From the IMG/VR virus record IMGVR_UViG_3300045988_134561: 39,477 nt of DNA, one strand, 5' to 3'. Below are positions 1,536 to 39,477 of this stretch, in pieces. Position numbers and translations under genes: made by a program. This stretch comes from a virus. The notes beneath the pieces are model-generated. The model did not search any database, was not told the origin of the DNA, and was given only the letters and a program-made list of their open reading frames with translations. Each line of letters begins with the position of its first letter. The stretch's first letter is position 1.

Positions 1536-1747
1536 TTCATGGCTCCGATGGCGTCGCGGGCTTCGGTGAGCATGTCGATCACCTGGTCTATGGCCTCGGT
1601 GGCGTCGGCGGTTGGTAGGCCGGCTGCGAGGCCGCCGATGGCGGCGGCGTGTCCCATCATGGCGGCGGTGAGGCTTCCCTTCATGGATGCCTTGACGGCT
1701 TCCTCGGCGACGGTGGTGATCGCCGTCTGGATCATCTCTGGCGTCAT
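1532..1747 (-). CDS. Hypothetical 71-aa Ala/Gly-rich protein
   Basis: Internal Met of ORF 1532..2209, chosen by its ATGA overlap with the stop of the upstream gene at 1744. Confidence 0.55.
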   Translation of the reverse strand: MTPEMIQTAITTVAEEAVKASMKGSLTAAMMGHAAAIGGLAAGLPTADATEAIDQVIDMLTEARDAIGAMK

Positions 1748-2514
1748 GCTGCCTTGTCCTTTCGTCTTGCTGCGGCGGCGAGTAGGTCGCCGACGTGGTA
1801 TCGGCCGTCGTGGTCGGTGAGGTGGCCGCGGTGTTTCCAGAGTCGGATCGTGGCCGGCCGTGTGGGGTAGCCCGCCTGGGTCAACAACCGGGCACCTTCG
1901 TCGGGGGTGACTAGCCAGTCGGCGGCCGCCTCCAGGTGGCTCGCGAGGAGGGGCTGCAACTCCCATTGGGTGTCGCAGGCCGGGCAGCGCGCCCACGATG
2001 ACCCCGGTGGGGCGTAGATCGGCTGGTCGCAGGTGCCAGCGTCCCCCAGGTCGGTGAGGCACCTGCCGTAGAACCTGGCGTCCTCGGGGACGTCCACGAG
2101 CGCCGTGATGGCCCGGATGGCGGCGAGGACCTCGGGGATGAGGGTGGCTAGCTCGGGGCGGCCGGGGTGCGCGGACGCGCCCCTGAGCGCCCATGAGACG
2201 TCTGTCCACGTCTGCGGCGTGGCGGTCCCGAGCAGGTCATGCGCCGCCCACTTCCCCCACTTCAAGAGGGTCCTCTCGTGGGCGCTCGCGGCCTGGATGA
2301 TGCCGAGCCTCACCGGGGGGCGACTGCATGGGGTGACGCTGGCCCCGCCGCCCTGGCCGCGCCTGAGCCCGGCCTTGGCGACGTCCAGGGCACCCATGAG
2401 CACCGAGATGCCCTGAACGGCCCCGTCGAGCCGCCGGCAGGCCGTCACGCTCACGAACCTGTCACCCCGCAGCGGCTCCCCCGTCACCGGGCAGGAACGG
2501 GCCTCGAAGCTCAC
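1744..2514 (-). CDS. Hypothetical protein with Cys cluster and C-terminal MerR/excisionase-like HTH
   Basis: Frame of ORF 1744..2559. GTGA overlap start at 2514 (start uncertain; 2559 also possible). Motifs CPACDTQW and TRPATIRLWKHRGHL. Confidence 0.55.
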   Translation of the reverse strand: MSFEARSCPVTGEPLRGDRFVSVTACRRLDGAVQGISVLMGALDVAKAGLRRGQGGGASVTPCSRPPVRLGIIQAASAHERTLLKWGKWAAHDLLGTATPQTWTDVSWALRGASAHPGRPELATLIPEVLAAIRAITALVDVPEDARFYGRCLTDLGDAGTCDQPIYAPPGSSWARCPACDTQWELQPLLASHLEAAADWLVTPDEGARLLTQAGYPTRPATIRLWKHRGHLTDHDGRYHVGDLLAAAARRKDKAA

Positions 2515-3660: not shown

Positions 3661-3867
3661 CTACTGGGTTCGGATTGTGACGTCTTCTGTGGTGGTTTCA
3701 TGGCCGCATTTTCGGCAGCGTATGACGGCGATTTGCCCCCAATGGACTCGGGTGACGCGGTGCGGCCGGTCACTGTTTCCGACCGCGTGGAGTTCGACTG
3801 TCACTTCCGGTTGGAGGTAGTGGTCACCGCACCGGATTCGGTGCTGGTCTGGGTCGTATACCGCCAC
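3661..3867 (-). CDS. Small zinc-ribbon-like protein (CGDH...CRKCGH)
   Basis: 68-aa ORF. GTG start 7 nt after GGAGG. Paired Cys motifs. Confidence 0.5.
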   Translation of the reverse strand: MAVYDPDQHRIRCGDHYLQPEVTVELHAVGNSDRPHRVTRVHWGQIAVIRCRKCGHETTTEDVTIRTQ

Positions 3868-3870
3868 GGG

Positions 3871-4008
3871 TCAGCCTCCGATGATTGCGCGCCAGGTAGC
3901 GACGATGATCCACAGGATGGCGCTGATGACAGCGAAGGCTGCGGTGATGGCGAGGATGAGGCCGACGGCCTGTCCGAGGCGCTGACCGAACGATGCTGTG
4001 GGTTTCAT
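3871..4008 (-). CDS. 45-aa membrane peptide (MKPTASFGQRLGQAVGLILAITAAFAVISAILWIIVATWRAIIGG)
   Basis: Not in the ORF track (under 60 aa). ATG preceded by AGGAGAACCC. Long hydrophobic segment. Confidence 0.5.
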   Translation of the reverse strand: MKPTASFGQRLGQAVGLILAITAAFAVISAILWIIVATWRAIIGG

Positions 4009-4551: not shown

Positions 4552-4576
4552 TTCCTGTTCCTTCCTGGGGTGCTGT

Positions 4577-4720
4577 TTATATTGTCGTGTTTTCGGCCGG
4601 TATTCGCGAATCGAGACACGCCGGGGCGAGATATTCCGCGATCAAATCCGCATCGAAATCAATCACCCGAATCGGAATAATCTCGTCGTTACCAGCTGCG
4701 AACCTCTCCCACGGAGTCAT
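4577..4720 (-). CDS. Hypothetical 47-aa protein
   Basis: Not in the track. ATGA overlap with the upstream stop at 4717. Locally AT-richer segment. Confidence 0.35.
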   Translation of the reverse strand: MTPWERFAAGNDEIIPIRVIDFDADLIAEYLAPACLDSRIPAENTTI

Positions 4721-5016
4721 TTCGCATCACCCGAAACGACGCCGAGAATCGTTGCGATATCCTGATGCAGGAACCCCTTACCGGACTCTTGCTCCAAGAA
4801 CATGGCCGCGACCTGCTTTGACGCCTCAGTCTCATGGCTCAACACCTTTACGAGAGCGATGAGGTTCGCGACCCGCATCTGGTCCGCGATATCAAGGAGA
4901 GCGCACACGTGCGCCTCAGCCGTCGGGTCCCCATCATCGGTCGAGAACATGGTCGTCTCAGCCACAGCCCGCCACGACGGCGGCTCCGGGAACGTCGGAC
5001 GCTCATCGAACTTCAT
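4717..5016 (-). CDS. Hypothetical 99-aa protein
   Basis: ATGA-coupled internal Met (MKFDERP...) of ORF 4717..5091. Confidence 0.55.
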   Translation of the reverse strand: MKFDERPTFPEPPSWRAVAETTMFSTDDGDPTAEAHVCALLDIADQMRVANLIALVKVLSHETEASKQVAAMFLEQESGKGFLHQDIATILGVVSGDAK

Positions 5017-9920: not shown

Positions 9921-10601
9921 TTAGGCCGCCCTAGTGGCCTTACGCGCACGATTCGAGGCACCCCCGGGGCGCCCACCACCCCCAGGGTGCGACGAACGCG
10001 CCAGAGCGGCCAACACCTCACGAGCCCGAGCCGCCCCATCACCCGACGACTCAGGCGACGGCGCAGCCGTCAACTCAGCCACCGGACGGGCCGACGGAAG
10101 CGCGTCAGCCCACGGCACACGCCCCGCACCCAGAGCGTGATCCATCCGAGCCAGCACCTCCGGCAGCGGCGTCGACGGCTCCAGCTCGGCCACCTGTGCC
10201 GCCTGCGCCAACGCAGCGCGCCCATGCCGGTCCGCGTCCACGTCGGCAGCGCCGTTGCCGATGGCCCTCAGGAAGCCCCGCAGGTACGCCGACTGCTCGA
10301 AGCCGCTGCGGCCCTCCGTCGGCAGGCTGTGGCGCTCACGCCAGGCCCGGATGCGCTCGCCCCGGACGGCCTTCGCGGCTCGGTTCACGTGCTGCGGCTT
10401 CGCCGCCCCGTAGGTCTCGACGTCGCCGGACGCGACGCGACGCACCGCCTCGGCGAGCACCTCGTCGGTCATGTCCTGGTCGAGGAGCGTCATCCAGGCG
10501 CGGATGCGCCGCTTGCCGCCCTCGGCGTCGACGATGCCGGGCAGCATCCCGGCATCCACGAGGATCCCGATTGCCAGGCTCACGCCCGTTGCGGTTGCCA
10601 T
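9921..10601 (-). CDS. Hypothetical 226-aa protein (replication-module position)
   Basis: ORF ATGA-coupled to the replication initiator gene. Confidence 0.6.
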   Translation of the reverse strand: MATATGVSLAIGILVDAGMLPGIVDAEGGKRRIRAWMTLLDQDMTDEVLAEAVRRVASGDVETYGAAKPQHVNRAAKAVRGERIRAWRERHSLPTEGRSGFEQSAYLRGFLRAIGNGAADVDADRHGRAALAQAAQVAELEPSTPLPEVLARMDHALGAGRVPWADALPSARPVAELTAAPSPESSGDGAARAREVLAALARSSHPGGGGRPGGASNRARKATRAA

Positions 10602-11524
10602 CAGAGCCCCTCCTTCGCGAACTGCTCGGCCAGGTCGTAGAACACCTGGCCGCCCTGGGATTGCCCGCCACGAGGCCGCTGGGACTGGAGGCGGAGCGTG
10701 TCGAACTTCTGGCGGAGCTTGGGGACGCTGAGGACGTTGGCGCGCCAGAAGTCGTTGCCCTCGGCCCAGTCGATGACGCGGGTGATCTCCTCGACGGTGC
10801 GGCCGTCGCGGTCGATCATGAGGCGGGCCTGTGTGCGCCAGGCGGCGGTGATGCGGGGGGTGCGTCCGGTGCGGCGCTGGACGCTCGCGGCCATGGCGTC
10901 GCAGACGGCGTCGACGTCGGGGCGGTGCTCGGCGATTGGGGTCGGCTCGGTGGCGTCCTCGTCGTCGCGCGCGCGTCCTCTCTCCGACGTAGTCGGAGAG
11001 AGTTTAGAAGTACGTAGTACTTCTTCTTTCTCTTTCTCTTTCTCTGTATTACCGCTGGTAGTACGACTCGTATCCGGGTTCGTAGTACGAGTCGTATCAC
11101 GAGTGGTATCGCGTCGCTCCCACCGGCGACGGACATTGGCGGAATTCCGCGCCCTACGGGCATCCGACTGCTCCTTGGAGTCCTGGTGCTCCAGGAAGTC
11201 ACGCAGCACGTAGTCCCCGGTCTCGTTCACCTCCAAAGAGGGCCTATCAGGGTGGTTCGTACGCAGTTCCGTAATAGGGTCCGTACTACGACTCGTATCC
11301 GGGTTCGTAGTACAACTCGTATACGAGTCGTATCCCCAACGTCGATCCGCGTACACCCTCGGGATCACCCCATCGGTCTCGCCGCGCCGGCACCAGAGGA
11401 TCATCTCCACCAGCGCCCGGAACGCGGCGTCCGACAGGACCACCACCTTCGGGGAGTCCGCGAAGTCCACCGTCATCCGCGCCCAGATGCGGCGGTCACT
11501 GCTGCGAGTCATCGCCGCCCCCAT
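10601..11524 (-). CDS. Replication initiator / DnaD-like replisome organiser with internal origin
   Basis: N-terminal winged-helix-like region. Low-complexity Thr/Arg/Asp linker encoded by DNA iterons. Conserved-looking C-terminal domain (ITRVIDWAEGNDFWRANVLSVPKLRQKFDTL). Start may be 11512. Confidence 0.6.
   Translation of the reverse strand: MGAAMTRSSDRRIWARMTVDFADSPKVVVLSDAAFRALVEMILWCRRGETDGVIPRVYADRRWGYDSYTSCTTNPDTSRSTDPITELRTNHPDRPSLEVNETGDYVLRDFLEHQDSKEQSDARRARNSANVRRRWERRDTTRDTTRTTNPDTSRTTSGNTEKEKEKEEVLRTSKLSPTTSERGRARDDEDATEPTPIAEHRPDVDAVCDAMAASVQRRTGRTPRITAAWRTQARLMIDRDGRTVEEITRVIDWAEGNDFWRANVLSVPKLRQKFDTLRLQSQRPRGGQSQGGQVFYDLAEQFAKEGL
11001..11335. repeat. Putative origin of replication: palindromic iterons plus AT/pyrimidine-rich tract
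   Basis: TACGA(C/G)TCGTA at 11062, 11086, 11287 and 11322, plus a 1-mismatch copy at 11311. Exact 27-nt direct repeat at 11062-11088 and 11287-11313. AT-rich tract 11001-11056 in a high-GC genome. Confidence 0.6.
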
Positions 11525-15996: not shown

Positions 15997-16091
15997 ATGG
16001 ATAATCTAGTGCGCCATATGGATCACTGGCAACTTCCTGGGAGCCGCGTTACCGAAATGCGATCTTGTTCCCCATATGGAATAGTGATCGC
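15993..16091. promoter_or_regulatory. Genetic-switch intergenic region with three CCATATGG operators and divergent promoters
   Basis: CCATATGG at 15993, 16014 and 16072. Leftward TTGCCA (16032-16027), 18-nt spacer, TAGATT (16008-16003). GTTACCGAA at 16048-16056. Confidence 0.65.
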
Positions 16092-16397
16092 ATGGCCAAG
16101 ATCGACAAGGACCCCACCAAAGGGCTGAACGCCGCCGTCGCTGCCGAGCTCCGGGCCGAGCGCGTAGCCCAGGAAGTCACCTTCGATGACCTCGTGGAAC
16201 GCGTCAGCCTCTCCAGGGCCACGACCTGGAGGCTGCTCAACGCCGAGCGCCTCATCACCATCGAAGCCCTCGTGGAGTTCGCCGGAGCCCTCGGCGTCAG
16301 CGTCCTGGAGATCGTCGAGCGCGCCGAGAAGCGCCTAGCAAGGGAGGCACCCCCCCCCCGCCGAAGGGGGCGCCGCCACGCCCTAGCGATGGCGTAG
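16092..16397 (+). CDS. CI-like XRE-family HTH repressor
   Basis: HTH pattern VTFDDLVERVSLSRATTWRLLNAER. Divergent from the Cro-like gene and followed by a terminator. Met10 of ORF 16065..16397 chosen (no SD; possibly leaderless). Confidence 0.7.
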   Translation: MAKIDKDPTKGLNAAVAAELRAERVAQEVTFDDLVERVSLSRATTWRLLNAERLITIEALVEFAGALGVSVLEIVERAEKRLAREAPPPRRRGRRHALAMA

Positions 16398-16414: not shown

Positions 16415-16443
16415 GAGGCCCCCACCGCGATGGTGGGGGCCTC
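16415..16443 (+). terminator. Intrinsic terminator after the repressor gene
   Basis: 12-bp stem gaggcccccacc / ggtgggggcctc with a 5-nt loop, followed by a T-containing tail. Confidence 0.65.
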
Positions 16444-16518
16444 AGTGTTGTTGGCGGCTGGCTACCCAGGGCGACGTGACCTTTCGTTGGGAATACTGGG
16501 GAAAGTCGGTTTGTCGGA

Positions 16519-16750
16519 AACATTGCTATCCAACTGCTATTTTGGGGGTAGTTTCGCGGCGTGGATCTGCGGTATTCTGCCGATCATGGGGGTCAAGGCC
16601 CGCTGTCTTGTAAACAGCAGGTCGTCGGTTCGAGTCCGACAAGCGGCTCCACGAATCCGCGGAATCATGCGGAAAACCACTCCCCCACGGTACGCTGTCA
16701 TGCGACAGTCTAGGCAACACATTGCTATCCAAACTGCTATCCGCTGCTAC
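16519..16750. other. attP region: tRNA-derived core flanked by arm-type direct repeats
   Basis: ACATTGCTATCC(A)AACTGCTAT at 16520-16540 and 16719-16740 (plus CCGCTGCTAC at 16741-16750), flanking the tRNA-like core. Lower GC than the surroundings and directly upstream of int. Confidence 0.6.
16579..16651 (+). tRNA. tRNA-Thr(UGU)-like sequence, probably only the 3' portion is authentic (attP core)
   Basis: Clean anticodon arm gctgt-cttgtaa-acagc, T-arm gtcgg-ttcgagt-ccgac, and acceptor 3' strand plus CCA. The D-arm is truncated and 2 of 7 acceptor pairs mismatch. Confidence 0.45.
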
Positions 16751-16763
16751 CCGAGGAGGAGTC

Positions 16764-18026
16764 ATGGCGTACGGCGAAGGGTCCATCTACCAGCGCAAGG
16801 ACGGGAAGTGGGTCGCCGCCCTCCCCGTCGGCTACACCCGCACCGGCGGACTCAAACGCGCCACCCGGATCCGCAAGACCGAAGCCGAAGCCAAGCGCGC
16901 CCTACGCCAACTCCGCCGCGACCACGCCGCCGGCCAGACCCAAGGCGCAAGCCCAAGAACCACCCTCAAGACCTGGTGCGACCAATGGAAGCAGGCGGCC
17001 GCCCAGCGCCTCCGCCCCAAGGCATACCTCAGCGCCAAAGACCAGATCGACCACTGGATAGTCCCCACCCTCGGACACAAACGCCTCACCGACCTCACCC
17101 CCGCAGACATGCGCACCCTCGACCGCGCCCACGAGGCCGCCGGCAACTCCACCTCCACGGCGCGACGCACACGCGCCGTCCTCTCCAAGATCCTCACCGA
17201 CGCACGCAGCGAAGGCCACCACGTCCCCACCAACGTCCTCGACGTCCCCCTCCCCAGAAAGGCCCCCAACCCGAGGGGAGCCATCCCCGTCAACGACGCC
17301 GCCACACTCCTCCACGCCTCCACTGAACCCGACGCCTGGCCGCCCCTCCCGACCAACGTCAGCACCCAGCAGCGCAAGTCCCGCCGCCTCGCCGGCGAGC
17401 AAGACGCCAGCCGGTGGGTCGCCGCCCTCCTCCAAGGCGCACGCCAAGCCGAATGCCTCGGCCTCACCTGGGACCGCGTCAACCTCGACGACGGCACCCT
17501 CACCATCGACCGCCAGCTCCAATACATCCCCACCCGCGCCATGGAAGGCGACCGCCCCCCGTCCTGGTACGCGGCCGAGCACCTGACTGGCCGATACTGG
17601 CTCGTACCGACCAAGACTCAGGCCGGGAAGCGAGTGCTGCCGATGACGCCGTGGATGGCTGCAGCCCTGAGCGCCTGGCGCGACCAGTGCCCGCCCTCCC
17701 CCTACGGGCTCGTGTGGCCCCGCTCGGGGGGCGGCCCGTGGTCGGGGGGTGACGACCGGCTGGCCTGGCGAGGGCTCCAGGATGCGGCTGGTGTCCACAA
17801 GGGCGGATCCGGCACCGAGGGTGACCCGTGGTCCTACTGGACGGTCCATGAGGCCCGGCACTCGACGGCGACGCTCCTCATGGCCGCTGGCGTCCCGGCC
17901 ACCGTCGTCATCTCAATCATGGGCCACTCAGCCATCACCGTCACCCAGAACTACCAGCACGCCGATCTGGAGATGGCTCGACAGGCGCTCGAATCGGTCG
18001 CCCCAAGACTGGGCCTCAGCGCGTAG
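16764..18026 (+). CDS. int: Tyrosine integrase (phage integrase family)
   Basis: N-terminal MAYGEGSIYQRKDGKWVA arm-binding-like motif. C-terminal HEARHSTATLL...GHSAITVTQNYQH catalytic motifs. SD GAGGAGGA 3 nt before the ATG. Confidence 0.9.
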   Translation: MAYGEGSIYQRKDGKWVAALPVGYTRTGGLKRATRIRKTEAEAKRALRQLRRDHAAGQTQGASPRTTLKTWCDQWKQAAAQRLRPKAYLSAKDQIDHWIVPTLGHKRLTDLTPADMRTLDRAHEAAGNSTSTARRTRAVLSKILTDARSEGHHVPTNVLDVPLPRKAPNPRGAIPVNDAATLLHASTEPDAWPPLPTNVSTQQRKSRRLAGEQDASRWVAALLQGARQAECLGLTWDRVNLDDGTLTIDRQLQYIPTRAMEGDRPPSWYAAEHLTGRYWLVPTKTQAGKRVLPMTPWMAAALSAWRDQCPPSPYGLVWPRSGGGPWSGGDDRLAWRGLQDAAGVHKGGSGTEGDPWSYWTVHEARHSTATLLMAAGVPATVVISIMGHSAITVTQNYQHADLEMARQALESVAPRLGLSA

Positions 18027-25742: not shown

Positions 25743-28700
25743 TCAGTCGTTGCGTGACGCCTCGACGGCGACGCGCTCAGCCTCGACGCGCATCCGGCCG
25801 ATGAGTTCGCCGTCGACGTCGCGCACCTCGAGCACCGAGGGCGTGTTGCCGCCCTTGCCGAGGATGTCGCCGATCTTGGACCACTGGCCGCCGGTGAAGA
25901 CGGGCTCGGGCTTGCCGGTGGCGTTGAGGACCGTCGTCAGGCCCGGCTGCAGGAGGCCCCCGGAGTCGAACTTGTAGAGGCCGGTCGACGGCGACCCGTA
26001 GATCGGGGTTTCCCGCACCGGGATGCCGAATGTGGGGGCCTCGACCATCCGGCCGCCACCACTGGCGATGGCGATGTGGTGCGCCGGGTACCCCCAGAAC
26101 AGCAAGGTTCCTGGGGTGTTGTAGGAGCCGCCGGGCGTGGAGCCCGCCTGGTAGCCGGCCGCCGTCAGACGCGGGATGTTGCTACCCATCTGGTGCGCCG
26201 CCCAGTAGACCAAACCGGAACAGTCGACGCCGGGCGGGATGCTCGATCCTCCCCACACGTAGGTTGCGCCGATTGCTTTCCGCGCGGCGTTGACTATGTC
26301 CGAGGCTGCCATGGTCGCGGTCTTGCCCTTGAGCCACTCCCCGAAGCCATCAACCCACTTCCCCGGCAAGGCGCCCGCCATGTCATGGAAGAACGCCGTC
26401 CCTGGCAGGCCGGCCATGGCCGCCTTCATCGGGAGCCGCATCAGGGCATCGACCGCGCCAAGCGGGTCGGTGATGATCGATGCGACCGCATCCGCCGCAC
26501 TGGACAACCAGCTCGTGGCCGCGTTCCAGCCGCTGCTGGCAGCCCCCTTGATCTTGCCCCAGATACCGCCGTCGGCGAAGGCCGCGAACCGGGCGCCCTG
26601 GTCTCCGCCGGGGATGTGCGCCCCGCTCGAGCCGCGGGCGGCCGCGTTCATCCGGTGCACGGCTGCGGGTCCGCCGACCGCCTTCACCCACTCGGGCCGC
26701 ATGATCGCCTCACCGCCGGACAGGGCCAGCGCCCCGCCGCCGTCGGGCGAGAAAAAGTGGTAGATATCCTTTCCCGGCGAATATCCGGGCAGCACACCAC
26801 CAGAGGCGTAGCCAGGGATCCCGGAGACGGACGGGAGTCTCATCGACAGGCCGAGCTTCTCCGCAATGGAGTCCGCCGTCTTCTTAATGCCGTCGCGGTA
26901 GACCGTGTTGATGATGAAGTTGATCGGCTTAGCGGCGACCGACTTAACCCCATCCCACACGGTCTGAATACCAGACTTCATGGTCTCGAATGCCTTTTTG
27001 ATATTCGTGGTGACCGTATCGAAGATCGGCTTGACCGTGTTCTGGAACCAAGACACGACCGTGTTGATTGTCGACTTGATGCCATCCCAGACGGTCTTCA
27101 AGCCATTCCACAGCGTGTCCGCGCCGGACTTGATGCCGTTCCACACCGTGGAGATGACGGGCTGCACGTAGGTCTGGAACCATGAGACGACCGTGAGCAC
27201 GGTGGCCTTGATGCCATTCCAGATGGCGACGATCCCATTCCACAGGAATTGTGCGCCCACCTGAATCCCGGTCCACACTGCGGAAATGACCGGCATGACG
27301 TAAGCAGTGAACCAATCGGCAACGACCTGCACCGCGGCCTTGATCCCATTCCAAATCGTGACGATCCCATTCCACAGGAACTGAGCCCCGACCTTGATGC
27401 CGTCCCAGACAGCAGCCAGCACGGGAGCCACGTAGGCGTTGAACCAGTCAACAGCAGTGCCGACGGCGGCCATGATCCCGTCCCACACCCAGACGATGCC
27501 CGCCCACAGGTACTGCGCCCCGGTCTTGATGCCATCCCAGGCGGCAGCGAGGACAGGCCCAACGTAGGTGACCACCCAGTCCACGACTGTCGAGATCGCA
27601 GCCCACCACATCTGGAAGTACAAGACGACGGCGGTAGCCAGGACCCACACGGCAACCTTGATGCCGGTCCACACCCCAGAAAGGACCGGGCCGACGTAAG
27701 TGGAGATCCAGTCCACGACCGTCGAGATCGCCGTCATGATCCCGCCCCAGACAGCGGTCACCGCGCCGCTCAGGACCGACCACACGCCACTCAGGACACT
27801 CACGGCACCCGAGATCAGCGGCACCACATAGGAGGTGAAGAACCCGCTGACAGCGCCCCACACCGTGTTCCAAGTCGAGCTGAGCGCGTTCAGGGTTGCG
27901 TCCCAGTAGGGGGCGATCCAGTCCAGGAACTTCTTGAACTCGGCGGTGATCGCCGCCCACGCTTTCTTGCCCGTCTCCGTCTGGGTGAAGAACCACGCCA
28001 GGGCTGCGACGACAGCGAGAATCGCGGTCACGATGAGGATGTACGGGTTCGCGTTCGAGACCACGTTGAAGGCCGCCTGCGCCTTCTTCGCGGCGTCCAC
28101 GGCCTTCTCCATTGATTTGAGGCTGGTCACCCATTTCAGGACGCTGCCGGCCTGCTTGATCGCGTCAATCGCCTGCGTCGCCTTGTGGAGGGTCCAGAAA
28201 GCGCCCGCAGCGGTGCCGACGGTGACGGCCAGGGTGGAGAGCATCCCCTTGTGCTCGATCCCCCAGGACGTGGCCGACAGGAGCGCGTCACCGACCTTCA
28301 CGATGGCGTCTCGCAGGCCCTCCAGGAAACCGGTCAGCGGCGAGTTCGGGTCCAGCCCGAACAGGGGCTTGTCCGTCTCTCCGGTGAAGATGATCTCCGC
28401 GAGCCCCTGCACAGACGGAATGAGCGTGTCATTGATCCACGTGCCGGCCTCGATAGCGGCATCACGGACACTGGAGAGGAAGCTGACCAGGCCGCTGTCC
28501 TCGGAGAGGCCGAAGAGGTTGCCGTCGTACTTGCCCGTGAACAGGAGGGTTCCGAGGCTCTCCACGGACGGCACGAGGGTCCCGGTTATCCAGTCCCCGG
28601 CGGCCCGGGCGGACTCCCCGATCTTGAAGAGGAAGTCAACGATCCCGGAGTCCTCTTCGAGTCCGAAGACCTTGGAGGAGCCGTCAAACTGCCCCTTGGA

Positions 28701-29612
28701 GAGAATGTCCCACACGCCCTGGATTCCGGGCACCAATTTGTCGTTGATCCACCCGAAGGCCGCCTCTGCGCCGGTAGAGACGTTCCCCATGAAGTCCGTC
28801 AGGGCGGGCTTGATCTGGTCGACGATACCCATCGCCCCAGACACGAGGGTGGCCTCGAGGTTGCCCCAGGCGCCCTCAATCGTCTTGGTCGACGTCGCCG
28901 CCTCCTTGGCGACATCGGTCATTCCAAGGTCCATCACCGCGGCGTTGAATTCCTCGGCGGTGATCTGGCCTTTCTCCATCGCCTCACGGAAATTGCCCGT
29001 GTAAGCGCCCGCTTCAAGGAGGGCCTGCTGGAGTTTCCCAGACGCGCCAGGAACGGCGTCGGCGAGCTGGTTGAAGTTCTCGGTGGTGAGTTTCCCCTGA
29101 CCAGCGGTCTGGGTAAGCACCATGCCGACCGACTTGAATGTTTCGGCGTTGCCCCCAGCCACCGCATTCAGGTTACCCGCGGCCTCGGCAAGTTTGTCGT
29201 AGCCCTGGACGTTGTTTGACGCCAACTGGGCGGTGATCGACTGGATATCCGACAGGCCGTAGACGGTCTTGTCAGCGTAGTCCTTCGTGGACTTGGTTAG
29301 CCGGTCGACGTCGGCCGCGGACTTGCCCGCGAAGTTCAGGGTGTTCTTGAACTTGTTCGTCGCGTCAGAGGCGGTGATCGCCTGCTTCGCGATATCCGAG
29401 AAACCCGTGGCAAGGCCAACGGTGGTGGCGACGGCGAGTGCGCCGGCGGCGATCTTCCCGACCTTACGGAACGCGCCACCCAGGCCGGAGACGATGCTGT
29501 TCTCCGCCCGCCTGGTGTTGACGCGGTTGAGCTTCCCCTCGACCTCGCGGGTGAGGTTGGAGCCCGAGATAGCGACCTGAATCCAGGCGGTGCCAATGTT
29601 GTAGCCGGCCAA
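25743..29612 (-). CDS. Tape measure protein with C-terminal NlpC/P60 cysteine peptidase domain
   Basis: 1289 aa, the longest gene. Internal 44-aa and roughly 52-aa repeats. GATYVWGGSSIPPGVDCSGLVYWA...HHIAIA NlpC/P60 motif. TTG start 7 nt after GAGGAGG. Confidence 0.9.
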   Translation of the reverse strand: MAGYNIGTAWIQVAISGSNLTREVEGKLNRVNTRRAENSIVSGLGGAFRKVGKIAAGALAVATTVGLATGFSDIAKQAITASDATNKFKNTLNFAGKSAADVDRLTKSTKDYADKTVYGLSDIQSITAQLASNNVQGYDKLAEAAGNLNAVAGGNAETFKSVGMVLTQTAGQGKLTTENFNQLADAVPGASGKLQQALLEAGAYTGNFREAMEKGQITAEEFNAAVMDLGMTDVAKEAATSTKTIEGAWGNLEATLVSGAMGIVDQIKPALTDFMGNVSTGAEAAFGWINDKLVPGIQGVWDILSKGQFDGSSKVFGLEEDSGIVDFLFKIGESARAAGDWITGTLVPSVESLGTLLFTGKYDGNLFGLSEDSGLVSFLSSVRDAAIEAGTWINDTLIPSVQGLAEIIFTGETDKPLFGLDPNSPLTGFLEGLRDAIVKVGDALLSATSWGIEHKGMLSTLAVTVGTAAGAFWTLHKATQAIDAIKQAGSVLKWVTSLKSMEKAVDAAKKAQAAFNVVSNANPYILIVTAILAVVAALAWFFTQTETGKKAWAAITAEFKKFLDWIAPYWDATLNALSSTWNTVWGAVSGFFTSYVVPLISGAVSVLSGVWSVLSGAVTAVWGGIMTAISTVVDWISTYVGPVLSGVWTGIKVAVWVLATAVVLYFQMWWAAISTVVDWVVTYVGPVLAAAWDGIKTGAQYLWAGIVWVWDGIMAAVGTAVDWFNAYVAPVLAAVWDGIKVGAQFLWNGIVTIWNGIKAAVQVVADWFTAYVMPVISAVWTGIQVGAQFLWNGIVAIWNGIKATVLTVVSWFQTYVQPVISTVWNGIKSGADTLWNGLKTVWDGIKSTINTVVSWFQNTVKPIFDTVTTNIKKAFETMKSGIQTVWDGVKSVAAKPINFIINTVYRDGIKKTADSIAEKLGLSMRLPSVSGIPGYASGGVLPGYSPGKDIYHFFSPDGGGALALSGGEAIMRPEWVKAVGGPAAVHRMNAAARGSSGAHIPGGDQGARFAAFADGGIWGKIKGAASSGWNAATSWLSSAADAVASIITDPLGAVDALMRLPMKAAMAGLPGTAFFHDMAGALPGKWVDGFGEWLKGKTATMAASDIVNAARKAIGATYVWGGSSIPPGVDCSGLVYWAAHQMGSNIPRLTAAGYQAGSTPGGSYNTPGTLLFWGYPAHHIAIASGGGRMVEAPTFGIPVRETPIYGSPSTGLYKFDSGGLLQPGLTTVLNATGKPEPVFTGGQWSKIGDILGKGGNTPSVLEVRDVDGELIGRMRVEAERVAVEASRND
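26929..27852 (-). repeat. Seven tandem 132-bp (44-aa) Trp-rich repeats inside the tape measure gene
   Basis: Units begin VVDW/VADW/VVSW...YV.PV...VW.GIK.GA..LWNGI. Register checked at 27720, 27588 and 27060. Confidence 0.8.
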
Positions 29613-34457: not shown

Positions 34458-35219
34458 TCACTCGGCGGGCTTGATCCCGTCAGTGAAAGACTCAGGGGCG
34501 ATACGGCGCATCTCGGCGGCTATCGCCTTGTCATCGACGGTGGCACCGGACGCCTTCACGGCCGCCCTGGCCTTGTCGTAGGTGGCGCGCAGGCCCTTCG
34601 GGTCGTAGCCGTCGATCGACGGCTTCTGCCCCTTCCACAGCGGCGTCGGGACACAGTGGCAGTCATGGTGGTAGGAATGCCCCTCACCGCCAGCCGTCGC
34701 CTTCGTCGCGTAGACAAAACCGCGGCTGGCAAGCATCGAGCACCAGGCGCAACAGCCGCCGGGGCCGGGTATGCGCGCCCACCTCGGGCGGGCCGGGTCA
34801 GCGGCCGCACTCATCTCCACAGTCCGCTTCCCCTGCGCGACGATCGAACGCGCCAAGTGGTTCCGCAGCTTGTCGAGCGTGTCCTCAGGGTCCCCGTCAA
34901 ACAAGCCCTTGGCGGCCCACCTCATGGTCCGCTCCACCTGCTCGGGCGACAGGCCATCGGCCAGGACGGCGGTGAACCCGTCGCCGGCGGCGGACACGTC
35001 ACGCAGCGCGTCATACCAGTCAGCGGCAGACGCGGCCGAGATGTCCCCGTACCGGGTCAGCAGCCGGTCCATTACCTCACCGAGCGCGTCGCGCGCCACG
35101 GCAGGGTCAAGGGCTGCCAGGTCCAGGCGTGCGGCGAAGGCGTCGAAGTCCTTCACCGCCATGTCGGCCGCCCGGTCCAGCGCTTTGTCCAGCCGCTCCA
35201 GGTCAGCCCGCGTCGCCAC
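34458..35219 (-). CDS. Head morphogenesis / MuF-like minor capsid protein
   Basis: 253-aa ORF directly after the portal gene. Cys/His cluster CCAWCSML...HSYHHDCHC. Confidence 0.6.
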   Translation of the reverse strand: MATRADLERLDKALDRAADMAVKDFDAFAARLDLAALDPAVARDALGEVMDRLLTRYGDISAASAADWYDALRDVSAAGDGFTAVLADGLSPEQVERTMRWAAKGLFDGDPEDTLDKLRNHLARSIVAQGKRTVEMSAAADPARPRWARIPGPGGCCAWCSMLASRGFVYATKATAGGEGHSYHHDCHCVPTPLWKGQKPSIDGYDPKGLRATYDKARAAVKASGATVDDKAIAAEMRRIAPESFTDGIKPAE

Positions 35220-36690
35220 CGCTGGTCACCTCGACCGGGGCCTCAGCGGGCTCCTTCGGCGCTTGCTCGGCCGGGGTGGGCGTGGACGCCAGCAGACGAT
35301 CCAGCACCCCACCAGCCTGCGCCCGCCTGATCTGCGACCGAATCCTGACGATCTGCTCAGCCGAGTAGCCCAACTCTTCCAAGGCCACGTCAGTCTGAGC
35401 AAGCTCCGGGATCGCCGAAATCTGCTTGACCACGGCGTCGGACTGGCTGACAACGGACGGCATGGCAGGGTTCCGCCACCTCGTGGCGAGGTTCCGCACC
35501 TCATCGTCCATCTCCGACACGGGGATCCCGTCACGGAGGCAGATCGCGTCCTGGACGATCCGGTTCAGGCCGTAGCCGATCGACCGCGTGGTGTTCTGCG
35601 CCTCGATCACCAGGTCTTCCTTGGCGGCGTAGATCGCCTCGGCGCTACTCGGGTTGTCCTGGACGATGCCGAGCGCGGAAATCGGCAGCGACGTCGCCGA
35701 AGCGAACTCAGCCGCCAGGGCGCGCTTCATCGCCAGGAACGGCTCCATGGACTGCTGCGGGATCACCTGCAGGTCGGGCTTGTCCCCGTCCTCATCCTTC
35801 GGCAGGGACTTCAGGCGCCCCATGTACCAGGACCAGAGCGGAACCTTGTCGCCCTGGGCGTTCTGGAACATGGTCTCATCCGCGCCCAGCAGCAGCAGCG
35901 CCGGGGCCGCGTACAGGTCGCTACTGACCTCGGTGCGGAAGCCGGCGCGGACCACCCTGTCGGTGATGGACATGACCTCACGGCTGATACGCGACCGCCC
36001 AAACGGGCGGCCGAGCGCCGGCCGGTACGGAAGCGGCTCCATCGGGACCCGCCCCAGGGAGTGATCCATCCTAGCGACAGCCACCCACCCCCGGTCACCC
36101 AGGGCCAGGCGAGTCACATGCTCGGCCGTCAACAGCAGCACCGACGTCGGCTTCCCGTTATCGTCGGCGGAGTCCACCAGCAGGCCAGCCTCAAGGCCAC
36201 GACGGCGCACGTCCCACAGGCCCGTCGCCCAAAGAGCGTCAGCGCCCGTCACAACCACGTCAGGATCCCCCGCGGCCGGGTCACCCGGCAGGGCCACCAC
36301 GAACGAGCAGCAGTAGGTCAAGGTGGCGTCCACAAGCTCGGGCACCAGCAGGTCAAAGCGGTTCTCATGCAGCAGCGACATGGCCCCCAGGGGATCCTCC
36401 TCGCCCGACGGCGACGTAACCCCATCCCACATGCAGCGCGACGCCAGCGACGTGACCGCCTTATCCGGCCAGCCACACACGATATCCAACTGGTCCCGCA
36501 TGTAGGGAGGCACCGAGGCGCCCAGAAACGCCACGTTCACCTGCATGTCCCGGTACTGGCGACGGAGAGCATTCCGTGCCCGCTTGGCCTGCCACTGCTT
36601 GATGAGGCGCCCCATGACGGCGGCGTCATCCTCGGCGAGCCCGCGGACGTCGGTAGGGACAGGGGCGTAGTAGGCCCGGAAGTCCATCAC
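35203..36690 (-). CDS. Portal protein (SPP1 gp6-like)
   Basis: 495-aa ORF ATGA-coupled to terL. Size and position are canonical. Confidence 0.85.
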   Translation of the reverse strand: MMDFRAYYAPVPTDVRGLAEDDAAVMGRLIKQWQAKRARNALRRQYRDMQVNVAFLGASVPPYMRDQLDIVCGWPDKAVTSLASRCMWDGVTSPSGEEDPLGAMSLLHENRFDLLVPELVDATLTYCCSFVVALPGDPAAGDPDVVVTGADALWATGLWDVRRRGLEAGLLVDSADDNGKPTSVLLLTAEHVTRLALGDRGWVAVARMDHSLGRVPMEPLPYRPALGRPFGRSRISREVMSITDRVVRAGFRTEVSSDLYAAPALLLLGADETMFQNAQGDKVPLWSWYMGRLKSLPKDEDGDKPDLQVIPQQSMEPFLAMKRALAAEFASATSLPISALGIVQDNPSSAEAIYAAKEDLVIEAQNTTRSIGYGLNRIVQDAICLRDGIPVSEMDDEVRNLATRWRNPAMPSVVSQSDAVVKQISAIPELAQTDVALEELGYSAEQIVRIRSQIRRAQAGGVLDRLLASTPTPAEQAPKEPAEAPVEVTSGGDAG

Positions 36691-38162
36691 ATCACCACCC
36701 CTACGCGGCTGCCAGCCAGTTCGCGCGGCCGTCTCTTCGTTGTCTTCGTGGCCCAGTGGGCCAGTGTCAGTGCGTCCATGCCCGCAGAGGTCATCCCCTC
36801 CGGGGCGGTCCAGCCGAAACCGCCGCCCGCGCCGATCTTCCGGCGGCTAATGACGGCGGCCTCAGCCTCTAGCTCGGCGTCGTCCGGGTGCGACAGGGAC
36901 CGGTCTCGGATCGCGGCGTCCATCATGGCGTGAGCGGCGATGACCTGATCCGTCGTCGGCGTCCAAATCACCTTCGGACTGAACCCCGCGGCACGGAGCC
37001 GATCAACCAGGTCGCCGGCACCGGACTTGCCGTCCACGACGATCTGCGCCCACCGATCCCGGTGCTCCAGCAGGTAGTCAATGATCCAGTGCACGCCCTC
37101 ACCCATGTTCCGCACCCCCTGCGAGGTGCACAACTGGGCGTAGACCGCCTCACTCTTGCGCTCGGGCTTCCGGCCAGCGCGAGCCAGCGCTACCGTGGAG
37201 CCGTCCACCGAGAAGCGGACGGCGGCGCACCAGCGCAGCCCAGACGGCGGCTCATCCACCGTCAGCGCGTTCCACGCCTCACGGCCAATCGCCTGGCTGG
37301 CGACCTCCGGGTCCCAGATACCCAGACCCTCACGCCGGAAACTCTCAGGACCAAGCTGGCGCTTCATCCGCAGGATCGCCGACTCCGGCGTCCGATGCGG
37401 GTAGGAGGGGTTTCCTTTCTTCCACTGGCGGCGGTCTTCCGGGTCGGCGTCGTCATCTGCGCCTACCTCGGCATACAGGCCATCGCGCAGGTCGCCGGCG
37501 AGGGCCTGCTTCCTGAACGTCGTGAAAGCCTCAGACGGGTCCGTTGGTCGCGGCGGCGTGCCCAGCCGCAGGATGAGCGGGTTCGGGGCCGTGTTGACCG
37601 CGGGCACCATGTCATCCAGCGCCCGCTGACCGAGGATCTGCGCCTCGTCAAAGACGATGATGTCGACGCCAGCGAAGCCACGACCGAAGCCACCCTCTCT
37701 AGCGCCAAACAGGATCCGGGAGCCGTTCGTGAACTTGATCGACTGCTGACCGTTCGCCTGCCTTGGTCGGCCGTCGATGTACGGGGCGATCTCCGGTTTC
37801 AGGGCGAGCCCCTGCATCGACGCGAACGTCTCATCGGCGGTACGCGTCCTGTGCGCCGTCCAGAGGACGAACAGGCCCTCGTTCAGGGTGCACAGAGCGA
37901 ACACAATCGCCCCGAAGGTGTAGGTCTTCCCGACCTGCCTAGGCATCGATACCTGCACGCCGTCGATCCCCGCCGCGTAGAGCCCACTCTTCCGCTTCGC
38001 CAGGATCGCGCGCCCCAGCCCATCCTGCCAACGGTCAAAGCTGAGCCCGAAGCGCTTGGCGCGATCGCGGACGGCCGGCCAGCCCGTGGACGTGATGCCC
38101 TCAGGCAGGATGAGGTGCTTCGCGATGTCGGACAGGCGGGGCTCAGATGTCGCCGAGCCCAT
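36687..38162 (-). CDS. terL: Terminase large subunit
   Basis: Walker A-like PRQVGKT and Walker B IIVFDEAQ, plus a C-terminal nuclease region. Met chosen inside ORF 36687..38279, overlapping terS by 20 nt. Confidence 0.9.
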   Translation of the reverse strand: MGSATSEPRLSDIAKHLILPEGITSTGWPAVRDRAKRFGLSFDRWQDGLGRAILAKRKSGLYAAGIDGVQVSMPRQVGKTYTFGAIVFALCTLNEGLFVLWTAHRTRTADETFASMQGLALKPEIAPYIDGRPRQANGQQSIKFTNGSRILFGAREGGFGRGFAGVDIIVFDEAQILGQRALDDMVPAVNTAPNPLILRLGTPPRPTDPSEAFTTFRKQALAGDLRDGLYAEVGADDDADPEDRRQWKKGNPSYPHRTPESAILRMKRQLGPESFRREGLGIWDPEVASQAIGREAWNALTVDEPPSGLRWCAAVRFSVDGSTVALARAGRKPERKSEAVYAQLCTSQGVRNMGEGVHWIIDYLLEHRDRWAQIVVDGKSGAGDLVDRLRAAGFSPKVIWTPTTDQVIAAHAMMDAAIRDRSLSHPDDAELEAEAAVISRRKIGAGGGFGWTAPEGMTSAGMDALTLAHWATKTTKRRPRELAGSRVGVVM

Positions 38163-38442
38163 CCTCATCCTCCGTCGCCTCAGTCGCCGTCTGCCGCTCA
38201 CGCTCCTCGCGAGCCAGGTCGATCTCCCGGATCGACTTGTCCACCTCGATGAGACGGCGCGACAGAGCAGCCAGGTCACGCGGGGGCGTATCAGGGGCGC
38301 TCACCGCGGCCGCGAGACGACGACGGAGCGCCACCATCACGTCCCGATTGTCCCCATGCTCCGTCGCGTCCAGGACGCTCATAGGGGCCGCGGGGGCCGT
38401 CTCGCCAGCCTTCACGGCGCGAAGTTTCCTCGCGGCACCCAT
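38143..38442 (-). CDS. terS: Terminase small subunit
   Basis: Roughly 100-aa helical, acidic-tailed ORF directly upstream of terL. ATG at 38442 lies 5 nt after AAGGGGG (GTG at 38448 also possible). Confidence 0.6.
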   Translation of the reverse strand: MGAARKLRAVKAGETAPAAPMSVLDATEHGDNRDVMVALRRRLAAAVSAPDTPPRDLAALSRRLIEVDKSIREIDLAREERERQTATEATEDEDGLGDI

Positions 38443-38554
38443 AAGCACCCCCTTGGGAAAAAACAGTGGGGAGAGATGCCGCTATACCCACGGGGGTGCG
38501 AGAGCGGGGGACGGGAGGGTATTCCCCCCTGTCCCGGCGTTTCTGGCGGCTACT

Positions 38555-38926
38555 CTACCAGGTTTCTGTGTCGGTTGTCTGTTGAATTCGGGCCACTGTG
38601 TGACGTTTGCGTTTCGGTGGCCGTGGTTTTCTGCCGTTTCCTTTGCGTTGGTTGCATTTTCGGCAGATGATTTGAATGTTCTCTAATGAGTCGTTTCCGC
38701 CTCGACTGTGAGGCACGATGTGGTCGGCCTCAGGGCTACTAGGCAGTAGGCCAGCGTCCCAGGTGAGGCGGACGTGGCAGAGTGGACAGTGCTCTAGTCC
38801 TGCGGCGCGAGCGCTGTGCTTAGCTGTGGCGGAGTTCCTGAGCCAGCGTGTGGTGCCGGTGCGTGAGGTGGCCGTCGGTCCTCCTCGCGCGTGTGCGCAC
38901 GCGGGCCGCGTCGTGCTGCTGTGCAC
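38555..38926 (-). CDS. HNH endonuclease (terminase-associated type)
   Basis: CPLCH...ADHIVPHSRGGNDSLENIQIICRKCNQRKGN HNH motif. Visibly lower GC in its 3' half. Precedes terS. Confidence 0.85.
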   Translation of the reverse strand: MHSSTTRPACAHARGGPTATSRTGTTRWLRNSATAKHSARAAGLEHCPLCHVRLTWDAGLLPSSPEADHIVPHSRGGNDSLENIQIICRKCNQRKGNGRKPRPPKRKRHTVARIQQTTDTETW

Positions 38927-39100
38927 GTGCGGCCCGCGTCGCTTCTCCCCATTCCCTTCTCCCCAGAAGGGTAGGCAGTAGTGGAGCCCAGCGACCGTGC
39001 GGGTCGGCTGGGCTCTGACACTTTGCCTATGTTCGTATGATGCGCGTTTCAGTGTGGGTGTGCAAGTGGTGGCACGTCTGGGCGTGTTGCGGTTTGGTCA

Positions 39101-39268
39101 CGGGGTGGGGGCTGTCTGTTGTGGGGTGCCCCCATTGTCGATCCCCCCTCCCCCTGTGTTGATACCCCTGCCCCCTTGTTTGATGGGGGTGCCCCTGTTT
39201 TGTGAGGGGGTGGGGTGTTTGTTGCAGGCCCCCTTTTTGTGTGGCCTACCCCACTGTTTGTGTACGCC
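39101..39268. repeat. Eight phased 21-bp degenerate tandem repeats (G/C run followed by TGTTTG-like T/G tract)
   Basis: Units start at 39101, 39122, 39143, 39164, 39185, 39206, 39227 and 39248. GAT/TGA ends recur exactly every 21 nt in units 2-5. Confidence 0.75.
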
Positions 39269-39276
39269 CCTCAGGC

Positions 39277-39306
39277 TTGCATTCATTCAGTATGCTGACA
39301 TACACT
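39277..39306 (+). promoter_or_regulatory. Promoter-like element for the rightward cassette
   Basis: TTGCAT (39277-39282), 18-nt spacer, TACACT (39301-39306), in a locally AT-rich stretch about 50 nt upstream of the GTG at 39358. Confidence 0.45.
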
Positions 39307-39357
39307 TAAGCCATCGGGAACGAACCCGATACCCCAACTACATAGAGAGGAGGAACC

Positions 39358-39474
39358 GTGAACCAGGTTCTCACCATCATCGGCACGGTAGCGTCGGTGC
39401 TGGGCCTACTGGTCTCGCTGATCGCACTGCGGCTCACCTGGCCGCCGGACGGTAACGGCAAGCACCGGAAGTGA
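39358..39474 (+). CDS. 38-aa single-pass membrane peptide (VNQVLTIIGTVASVLGLLVSLIALRLTWPPDGNGKHRK); first gene of the rightward cassette
   Basis: GTG start 4 nt after the strong SD GAGAGGAGGA (39345-39354). Hydrophobic core with a basic tail. Below the 60-aa cutoff of the ORF track. Promoter-like TTGCAT-18-TACACT lies upstream. Confidence 0.6.
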   Translation: MNQVLTIIGTVASVLGLLVSLIALRLTWPPDGNGKHRK

Positions 39475-39477
39475 GAG
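39423..39477. repeat. Terminal overlap copy 2 (identical to 1-55)
   Basis: Exact 55/55 identity with the window start. Confidence 0.95.

Follow-up and report, generated by a model that had tools for sequence, protein, structure and literature searches.

Which function is served by a block of G/C-rich tandem repeats that lies in the divergent region between the late operon and a small rightward cassette of a phage genome? The question is posed by positions 39101-39268 of the window, that is, the whole stretch of 39,477 nt of viral DNA analysed here. The initial annotation described this block as eight helically phased units suited to cooperative protein binding and offered three candidate roles: a TerS recognition array, a regulator array for the cassette or late promoter, and a centromere-like site.

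Genomic setting and anatomy of the array

The first 55 nt of the window are identical to the last 55 nt; it is therefore a circularly assembled genome, of approximately 39.4 kb and 67% G+C, which looks like that of a temperate siphophage of actinobacterial host type. In the GC3-based gene map, the minus strand carries nearly all genes. Read in phage orientation, the map runs through cos, terS, terL, structural and lysis genes, integrase/repressor, and an early operon including an Ant-like protein, RusA, an O-like initiator, an exonuclease, a Sak4-like protein, and an SSB. The early operon ends with the gene of a 256-aa protein, an 84-aa ORF, and a terminator-like hairpin near 1245-1270, followed by a small opposite-strand cassette that runs from 39358 through the junction to 1219. 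Between this cassette and the HNH endonuclease gene lies a 430-nt intergenic region containing the array. The features outside this region are as follows.

1744-2514, minus strand: 256-aa zinc-ribbon and HTH protein, candidate late regulator (full-length alignment with gp58 of P. freudenreichii phage B22)
10601-11524: O-like initiator of the early operon (profile scans)
16065-16397, plus strand: repressor (gene map and profile scans)
16722-18026, plus strand: integrase (gene map and profile scans)
36687-38279: terL (gene map)
38143-38442, minus strand: terS, small terminase subunit (phrog_1459, 8.8e-23; 40% identical to B22 TerS)
38443-38554, minus strand: cos region (contig ends; likeness to the deposited left ends of B22 and Spartoi)
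38555-38926, minus strand: HNH endonuclease gene, the first late gene (Pfam HNH, 1.6e-11); in start codons compared with relatives, the conserved position 38875-38873 is ACG in this genome

The intergenic region itself contains six elements.

38876-39030, minus strand: predicted 5' leader of the late operon with three hairpins (fold z = -7.66, covariation)
39037-39065, minus strand: predicted late promoter P_late, TTGCAC-17-CATCAT (sequence; flanks invariant in relatives)
39083-39100, no strand assigned: near-invariant block CGTGTTGCGGTTTGGTCA(C) (per-column conservation in 26 genomes)
39101-39268, no strand assigned: repeat array of eight 20-21-bp units (layout, autocorrelation, outlier scan, conservation)
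39277-39306, plus strand: predicted cassette promoter, TTGCAT-18-TACACT (sequence; conserved in relatives)
39290-39303: conserved inverted repeat GTATG-N4-CATAC, overlapping the spacer and -10 of the cassette promoter

In a 21-nt register counted from 39101, each unit is composed of a G/C block of 9-11 nt followed by a tract with the consensus CTGTTTGTTGA. The block has the form S4-5, T or TG, S4-5 (GGGG/CCCC, T or TG, GGGG/CCCC), while the tract is T/G-rich on the plus strand and A/C-rich on the late-sense strand, giving the plus strand of the array a strong asymmetry of 10 A to 53 T. The eight units and their 21-nt register, as first described, are confirmed by the layout and by an autocorrelation with a peak of 0.50 at lag 21 and a second peak at lag 42, and units 2-5 do end in GAT, GAT, GAT, and TGA. 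The phasing was first described as "exact", but the best spectral period is 20-20.5 nt, not exactly 21, and the copies in units 7 and 8 are weaker. Because of the degeneracy of the units, Tandem Repeats Finder picks up no more than 39129-39179 (2.5 copies at period 20). The units also abut one another without unique spacers, which rules out a CRISPR array, in agreement with the initial annotation.

The array contains 15 G4+/C4+ runs per 170 nt against a genome mean of 2.20 (sd 1.75) and nine in the runner-up segment. For the periodicity of these runs, the power reaches 9.1, where the genome averages 0.37 (sd 0.51) and the runner-up has 2.74. It is the single most extreme segment of the whole genome in run density and 20-21-nt periodicity.

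The array is non-coding. The overlapping ORF 38997-39455, which had been raised as a possible 7-aa-repeat protein, has a GC3 of 0.59 compared with 0.83-0.90 for real genes; among relatives, the longest open frame over the array switches strand and frame, and the array length of close relatives differs by 1-3 nt. The coding hypothesis is rejected on this low GC3 and the lack of a conserved frame. ORFs annotated over such arrays, such as Spartoi gp55 and PAD20 gp47, are probably spurious. An Rfam scan of 38400-39477 at E <= 1 gave no match.

Conservation of the array and its flanking elements

A terL search of IMG/VR yielded approximately 40 contigs, largely from human-associated (HMP-type) metagenomes, with terL genes about 86-98% identical to that of the window. 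The intergenic region is present in 25 of them at 70-92% identity, and the array is kept in all 25 relatives whose loci reach the region. For prophage relatives, a GTDB genome scan found only a 46%-identical Bifidobacterium terL. The array spans 173-179 nt in 15 genomes, 193-199 nt in eight, and 217-219 nt in three; these classes lie about 20 nt apart, and units are therefore gained and lost whole. The phasing seen in the single genome is thus kept among relatives, with length shifting by entire units. The majority fraction is 0.88 in the G/C blocks, 0.76 in the tracts, and 0.85-0.91 in the flanks, and the identity of each run as G or C is kept, with no compensatory G-run/C-run swaps.

More distant lineages preserve the same plan. 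For instance, L064, found via homologues of the 256-aa protein, has array units of the GGGGAGGGG-CACAGCCAC type; L061 has a homogenised, perfect 20-nt tandem of CGGGGGCACAGCCACGGGGG in at least four copies beside an assembly gap; and L098, from an HNH search, has nine units such as GGGGcaCCCC-attgagcaa. From these three arrays, it follows that the grammar is retained while the unit sequence turns over. Only the window group, L098/L099, and L143 have a strong excess of A over T, and this excess is rejected as a universal orientation mark.

The array stands between two predicted promoters pointing away from it, which supports the divergent arrangement first claimed. On the cassette side, the TTGCAT-18-TACACT promoter of the initial annotation is indeed present at 39277-39306 and conserved in relatives, as a prediction; the array lies 8 nt upstream of its -35, and the cassette genes behind it differ between relatives. 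On the late side, the array, upstream of P_late, stops 35 nt short of the promoter's -35 (TTGCAC, 39065-39060), which is followed by a 17-nt spacer, the -10 (CATCAT, 39042-39037), the leader, and HNH-terS-terL. P_late was not called by a generic promoter scan; promoter-like elements occupy the same position in L064/L061 (TTGCAC-18-TAGTCT/TACTCT) and L111 (TTGACA-17-TACTCT), and TTGCAC-17-CATCAT is predicted to be the late promoter. The block at 39083-39100 is possibly a promoter-proximal binding site.

The predicted leader, about 155 nt long, has hairpins at 38984-39015, 38954-38971, and 38900-38938. Among its 50 consensus pairs, 13 have compensatory double changes, and the G-U pairs fit a minus-strand RNA. 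Since the changes in the hairpins fit RNA of the late sense, transcription probably starts between the array and the leader.

A proposed late-operon binding platform and its rivals

An array that is non-coding and conserved, changes by whole units, and lies between divergent promoters is reasonably read as a site of cooperative protein binding. The corresponding claim of the initial annotation gains from the conservation, the unit-wise length change, and the position; the binding itself, the identity of the binder, and its activating effect are proposals. Among the three roles first proposed, the regulator array for the late promoter fits best. Our tentative reading is that the array may be a multi-site docking platform for the 256-aa zinc-ribbon/HTH late regulator, comparable to the Ltr/RinA regions. 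It would present eight to 10 sites on one face of the DNA, two helical turns apart and directly upstream of P_late, to which the late regulator would bind cooperatively; the bound complex would then recruit or stabilise RNA polymerase at P_late, a promoter with imperfect -35 and -10 elements. The same complex would probably modulate or insulate the cassette promoter, because the array abuts its -35. In this way, the platform would control the late operon of HNH, cos, terS, terL, and onward. Both promoters and the leader in this scheme are predictions from sequence.

Position and weak homology suggest the assignment of the regulator. B22 gp58 and the 256-aa protein can be aligned from end to end, and 22 columns do not vary, among them a CxxC pair and the HTH. 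B22 gp58 and PAD20 gp24 match only sigma-70 region 4, in both cases below threshold (18 bits for B22 gp58 against a cut-off of 42.9). The 256-aa protein itself gave no match in Pfam (E <= 1), NCBIfam, or PDB folds; its AlphaFold2 model (pLDDT 75.6) has no significant Foldseek match in the PDB, and a profile comparison with Spartoi gp53 was negative. Its gene is the last large gene of the early operon and is separated from the array by the 84-aa gene, the terminator, and the divergent cassette of 1.3 kb. The regulator gene and the late control region are neighbours in B22 and L111, and B22 also follows the order of regulator gene, small gene, terminator, array, and late operon, from which the window group and L064/L061 depart chiefly by the inserted cassette. 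Against the assignment, lineages with a similar G/C-block grammar have regulators that are only 27-60% identical. The HTH protein encoded at 1001-1219, previously put forward as a binder, is unlikely to be a universal one: L064 lacks a homologue but keeps both cassette and array, and the small cassette protein is therefore not the general binder.

L111 serves as a natural control. Its HNH is related (71% identity), its cos is of the same type, and it encodes a homologous regulator (27% identity), yet the array is missing. In its stead, two copies of CATGAAT 20 nt apart and an inverted copy stand directly upstream of a consensus promoter, TTGACA-17-TACTCT, which would be the same logic on a smaller scale.

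Other observations weigh against a platform. In many relatives, the cassette promoter recurs immediately behind the HTH gene, and this second copy stands without an array. Comparable G/C-run regions elsewhere (PAD20/L147, Spartoi/L145, and L116/L125) appear to be situated downstream, either of the late promoter or of HNH, so a promoter-upstream role would not be general if all of these are the same element. The array is also far larger, at 170-220 bp and eight to 10 units, than known Ltr sites.

How far such regions extend was addressed with the window and three further complete genomes, those of Rothia phage Spartoi, P. freudenreichii phage B22, and C. acnes phage PAD20. In each of the four, the segment that ranks first for run density and 20.5-21.5-nt periodicity has its start 634-799 nt from the right end, and unbiased whole-genome scans of Spartoi, B22, and PAD20 place it just upstream of HNH. 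A wider HNH-based sample has arrays upstream of HNH, between HNH and cos, or none at all (L111 and L108). For instance, L116 and L125 have repeats of GGGGTA plus an A-rich part between HNH and cos, running into the cos palindrome, while PAD20/L147 and Spartoi/L145 have conserved promoter-like elements upstream of the G/C-run region, which may there be a transcribed leader similar to the hairpin leader of the window. Two hits are false positives: the top G/C-run segment of L111 falls within the coding sequence of its regulator gene, and the fourfold GGGGAACA repeat that L108 has 2.4 kb upstream of HNH is unrelated. The G/C-run elements across lineages are not demonstrably one thing and are treated as a lead only.

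The position near HNH suggests a second explanation, in which the array is a cos-linked packaging accessory site bound by TerS, TerL, or HNH upstream of the cut; together with a T-tract downstream of the cut, it would aid the assembly of the cleavage complex or slow the motor before the terminal cos, in the manner of SPP1 pacL or lambda cosQ. At least eight independent IMG/VR contigs, some with fold-back artefacts, begin within 38478-38505, and the late-sense sequence at the inferred left end, AGCGGCATCTCTCCCCACTGTTTTTTCC (AGCGGCATCTCTCCCC... from about 38483), resembles the deposited left ends of B22 (AGCGATATCTCCCCGGGTTTTTCC) and Spartoi. Together, these two lines of evidence place the cut between HNH and terS, at about 38483. 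A G6-AATA-CCCTCCC palindrome lies upstream of it and the T-tract CCCCACTGTTTTTTCC (38456-38471) downstream. A cos at the array itself is rejected by the clustering of the contig ends.

The packaging explanation draws on the 634-799 nt between the top segment and the right end in the four genomes and its place beside HNH, on the L116/L125 repeats that reach the cos palindrome, and on the resemblance of this palindrome (G5-6, N4-8, C4-6) to the G/C blocks. The 11-mer CCCCACTGTTT of unit 8 (39249-39259, plus strand) recurs inverted at 38461-38471 (minus strand), +13 to +23 from the left end, and the antisense 6-mer sharing between left end and array is matched by only about 0.07% of background segments in the window and 0.5% in PAD20. 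TerS ring stoichiometries also resemble the eight to 10 units of the array. However, no enrichment in 6-mer sharing is found in B22 or Spartoi; a PWM of the unit, which is of low information, ranks the cos site only ninth in the genome; and there is no co-variation, relatives with CCCCACCATTTT at cos keeping CCCCACTGTTT in unit 8. L111 and L108 share the cos type but lack the array. The T-tract coincides with the position of the HK97 TerS site (+15 to +29), where one element of 15 bp downstream of the cut makes up the whole site (PMC11331095). The array, however, lies approximately 620-785 nt from the cut with a promoter, the leader, and the HNH gene in between. The TerS recognition role of the initial annotation is weakened by this distance and by the HK97 position, and we give a packaging site a low probability.

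Somewhat less probable still is an array acting without a dedicated protein, as a non-B-DNA or supercoil-sensitive spacer that couples or insulates the divergent promoters. Negative supercoils from the promoters would drive the G/C runs into a G-quadruplex, i-motif, or hairpin, or the array would act through intrinsic curvature. The only motif of the genome with four G4+ tracts and loops of up to 12 nt is at 39129-39175 on the minus strand; 22 of 26 relatives retain it, and none has it on the plus strand, although this retention may simply follow from the conservation of the C-runs. G-runs and C-runs are mutually complementary, with a single-stranded DNA fold z of -2.46, which is a modest score. 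Predicted curvature in the array is in the top 0.2% of the genome, as a relative result that depends on the wedge parameters, but the relatives have values of 0.80-0.96 against a background of 0.96; on this relative measure many relatives are at background level, and intrinsic curvature is rejected as a conserved property. In addition, B22 has a comparable array but no divergent promoter.

We give a similarly low probability to a broader proposal, namely that the array belongs to an undescribed class of genome-end-linked G/C-run elements of HNH-cos actinophages, acting on the DNA itself and not on transcription, with hosts in Cutibacterium, Propionibacterium, Rothia, and oral Actinomycetota. 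Possible actions include a brake or marker that the packaging motor meets before the terminal cos, an anchor for the last-packaged/first-injected end, or a Chi-like, orientation-specific shield against end-processing nucleases of the host; the variant in the window lineage would be a G-quadruplex or supercoil switch coupling the cassette and late promoters.

A neutral by-product of slippage or unequal crossing-over in a functionless spacer is very unlikely. Whole-unit gain and loss and the homogenised tandem of L061 are the products expected of slippage, and the tracts are less conserved than the flanks; against this, the array persists in 25 of 25 relatives and in divergent lineages despite the turnover of units, its G/C blocks equal the flanking functional blocks in conservation, and it is the most extreme region of the genome. 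A transcribed RNA element, be it late leader or antisense RNA with an attenuator, Rho-loading, or processing region, is slightly less likely again: it would suit the strand asymmetry with its A/C-rich late-sense strand, the promoter-like elements upstream of the G/C-run regions in PAD20/L147 and Spartoi/L145, and the L116/L125 repeats inside the late transcript, but in the window lineage, no late-sense promoter is found upstream of the array, a conserved promoter-like element lies downstream of it, Rfam gives no match, and the runs keep their G or C identity without compensatory swaps. The centromere-like site of the initial annotation is disfavoured by the integrase and repressor that the phage encodes and by scans against Pfam or PHROGs, partial in coverage, which found no partition gene among 39 of approximately 60 predicted proteins.

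Known phage systems and what the array would mean

The earlier statement that no standard phage element matches the array is too strong, as the Ltr/RinA regions, Cox/Apl sites, iterons, and SPP1 pacL are all phased arrays. The operators of P2 Cox and 186 Apl consist of six to seven boxes every ~10.5 bp, to which a small HTH protein binds cooperatively as a filament. Similar to the array, they are helically phased direct repeats that share one face of the DNA between divergent promoters, and one complex controls both promoters, as is proposed here; they differ in serving the lysis-lysogeny switch and excision instead of a late operon and in their ~10.5-bp instead of 20-21-bp spacing. No Cox/Apl homologue was identified in this genome. 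In SPP1 pacL/pacR and lambda cosB/cosQ, repeated, phased, or bent sub-sites lie near the cut on both sides and are bound by the oligomeric small terminase. All of these sites are within about 200 bp of the cut, whereas the array lies some 620-785 nt from it, on the far side of a gene.

Iterons, such as those of the lambda origin in gene O, share with the array tandem units of ~20 bp spaced two helical turns apart, but they come with an initiator gene and an AT-rich unwinding region, and beside the array neither is found. The O-like gene has its own 12/24-nt repeats at 11063-11333 with a dip in G+C, and the replication origin is likely inside this gene (10601-11524); iterons are set aside for the array on that account.

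The closest parallel is the family of Ltr regulators (RinA/ArpU/LtrA-C). Ltr sites consist of two to four repeats of 7 nt upstream of the late (terS) promoter in Firmicute siphophages (PMC3753634). As with the array, the direct repeats lie between the regulator gene and the first late packaging gene and upstream of the late promoter, which in the window is the predicted P_late. The LtrA family resembles sigma-70 region 4 (PMC3753634), which B22 gp58 and PAD20 gp24 recall at sub-threshold level. The differences are considerable: eight to 10 units of 20-21 bp over 170-220 bp against two to four of 7 nt, hosts in Actinomycetota instead of Firmicutes, a divergent cassette separating the regulator gene from the repeats, and a 256-aa zinc-ribbon protein without a Pfam family at E <= 1 instead of a small basic protein. 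Profile searches gave the candidate regulator no match to an Ltr family (ArpU, Sigma70_r4/LtrA, DUF1492, RinA, or LtrC). With this reserve, the array may be regarded, by analogy and provisionally, as an enlarged version of the repeat regions used by the late regulators of Gram-positive phages. In the literature searched on C. acnes, P. freudenreichii, and Rothia phages, neither such arrays nor transcript maps are described.

Late-gene control and cos recognition are essentially uncharacterised in actinophages, including the Cutibacterium acnes phages under development for therapy. A conserved and easily recognised cis element by the HNH/terminase module predicts where the late promoter lies and where its regulator would act, and the B22 gp58-like zinc-ribbon/HTH proteins, now annotated as "sigma factor", offer a candidate regulator family for testing. 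Should the element instead act on packaging or DNA ends, this would add a new component to HNH-cos packaging systems.

Genome junction and cos end

The window was assembled as a closed circle, and its first 55 nt are identical to its last 55 (1-55 and 39423-39477). At the junction, a 38-aa ORF (39358-39474) extends into this terminal duplication. The genes and the interval that bear on the physical end are the following:

38555..38926 (-): HNH endonuclease gene, the first late gene
38443-38554: cos region, between HNH and terS
38143..38442 (-): terS, small terminase subunit gene

Many independent metagenomic contigs start within approximately 25 nt of one another between HNH and terS, among them those of the related-phage loci L010, L017, L019, L021, L022, L026, L028, L030, L035, and L036, and this clustering marks the physical cos end at ~38483. 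Several of the contigs starting there bear an inverted fold-back of their last ~26 nt. The palindrome G6-AATA-CCCTCCC is located ~35-55 nt upstream of the cos cut, with counterparts in the Propionibacterium freudenreichii phage B22, the Rothia phage Spartoi, and the loci L111, L116, L124, and L125.

Late-operon leader and HNH start

At the 5' end of the late operon lies a structured leader:

38876-39030 (-): late-operon leader, three hairpins, backed by compensatory and G-U changes
38900-38938: hairpin 3 of this leader

Some relatives carry an altogether different stem in hairpin 3, and L025 and L014 have a flipped loop there. The leader might act in attenuation, as a target of antitermination, or as a stability element. 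At the HNH start-codon position, 20 relatives have GTG (13) or ATG (7), while the window has ACG instead (38873-38875), 3 nt downstream of the Shine-Dalgarno sequence GAGGAGGA; an in-frame GTG is found at 38926, within the loop of hairpin 3. The GC3 of the HNH gene, 0.63, is unusually low.

Repeats and candidate regulators in other lineages

Periodic G/C-run regions upstream of HNH are overlain by annotated reading frames in two of the compared phages:

Spartoi record 34512-34748: hypothetical ORF gp55
PAD20 (Cutibacterium acnes phage) record 28492-28626: hypothetical ORF gp47

Both are probably not genes. The array is homogenised in the L061 lineage, where, at 3734-3910, four or more perfect copies of the 20-nt unit CGGGGGCACAGCCACGGGGG come directly after a scaffold gap (N run), and the homogenised array probably broke the assembly. 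L108, of a lineage lacking the array, has GGGGAACA four times in tandem at 88-135, beside a CCCCGGGG palindrome and 2.4 kb upstream of HNH; this tandem is a repeat element distinct from the array.

In RefSeq, B22 gp58 is called 'sigma-70 family RNA polymerase sigma factor', and its match to sigma-70 is limited to region 4 and is sub-threshold (18 bits vs a cut-off of 42.9). Together with PAD20 gp24 and the protein encoded at window 1744-2514 (-), it looks like a zinc-ribbon/HTH regulator rather than a complete sigma factor.

Probable origin, predicted curvature, and cassette promoter

The O-like replication-initiator gene (10601-11524) contains 12/24-nt tandem repeats of the ACGAGTCGTATC and CGTATACGACT types (11063-11333) and also a local G+C dip, the same arrangement as that of the lambda ori inside gene O, which points to 11063-11333 as the probable origin. 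Another tandem repeat, of 132 nt (~2.5-2.7 copies, 73-75% matches, 27041-27548), lies inside a 1289-aa ORF (25743-29612) that presumably encodes the tape measure protein. Elsewhere in the window, only two regions equal the array (39101-39268) in strength of predicted intrinsic curvature: 4581-4800, just upstream of the SSB gene start (4552-4716), and 16441-16650, between the repressor and the integrase.

The cassette promoter (39277-39306) includes the inverted repeat GTATG-N4-CATAC. In many relatives, a second copy of both follows the HTH gene, ahead of another gene (for instance, L020 1591-1631 and L003 1334-1367), and the genes immediately behind the first copy vary among relatives. The cassette resembles a moron or accessory locus; on entry into the cell, its DNA would be the first to follow the right end.
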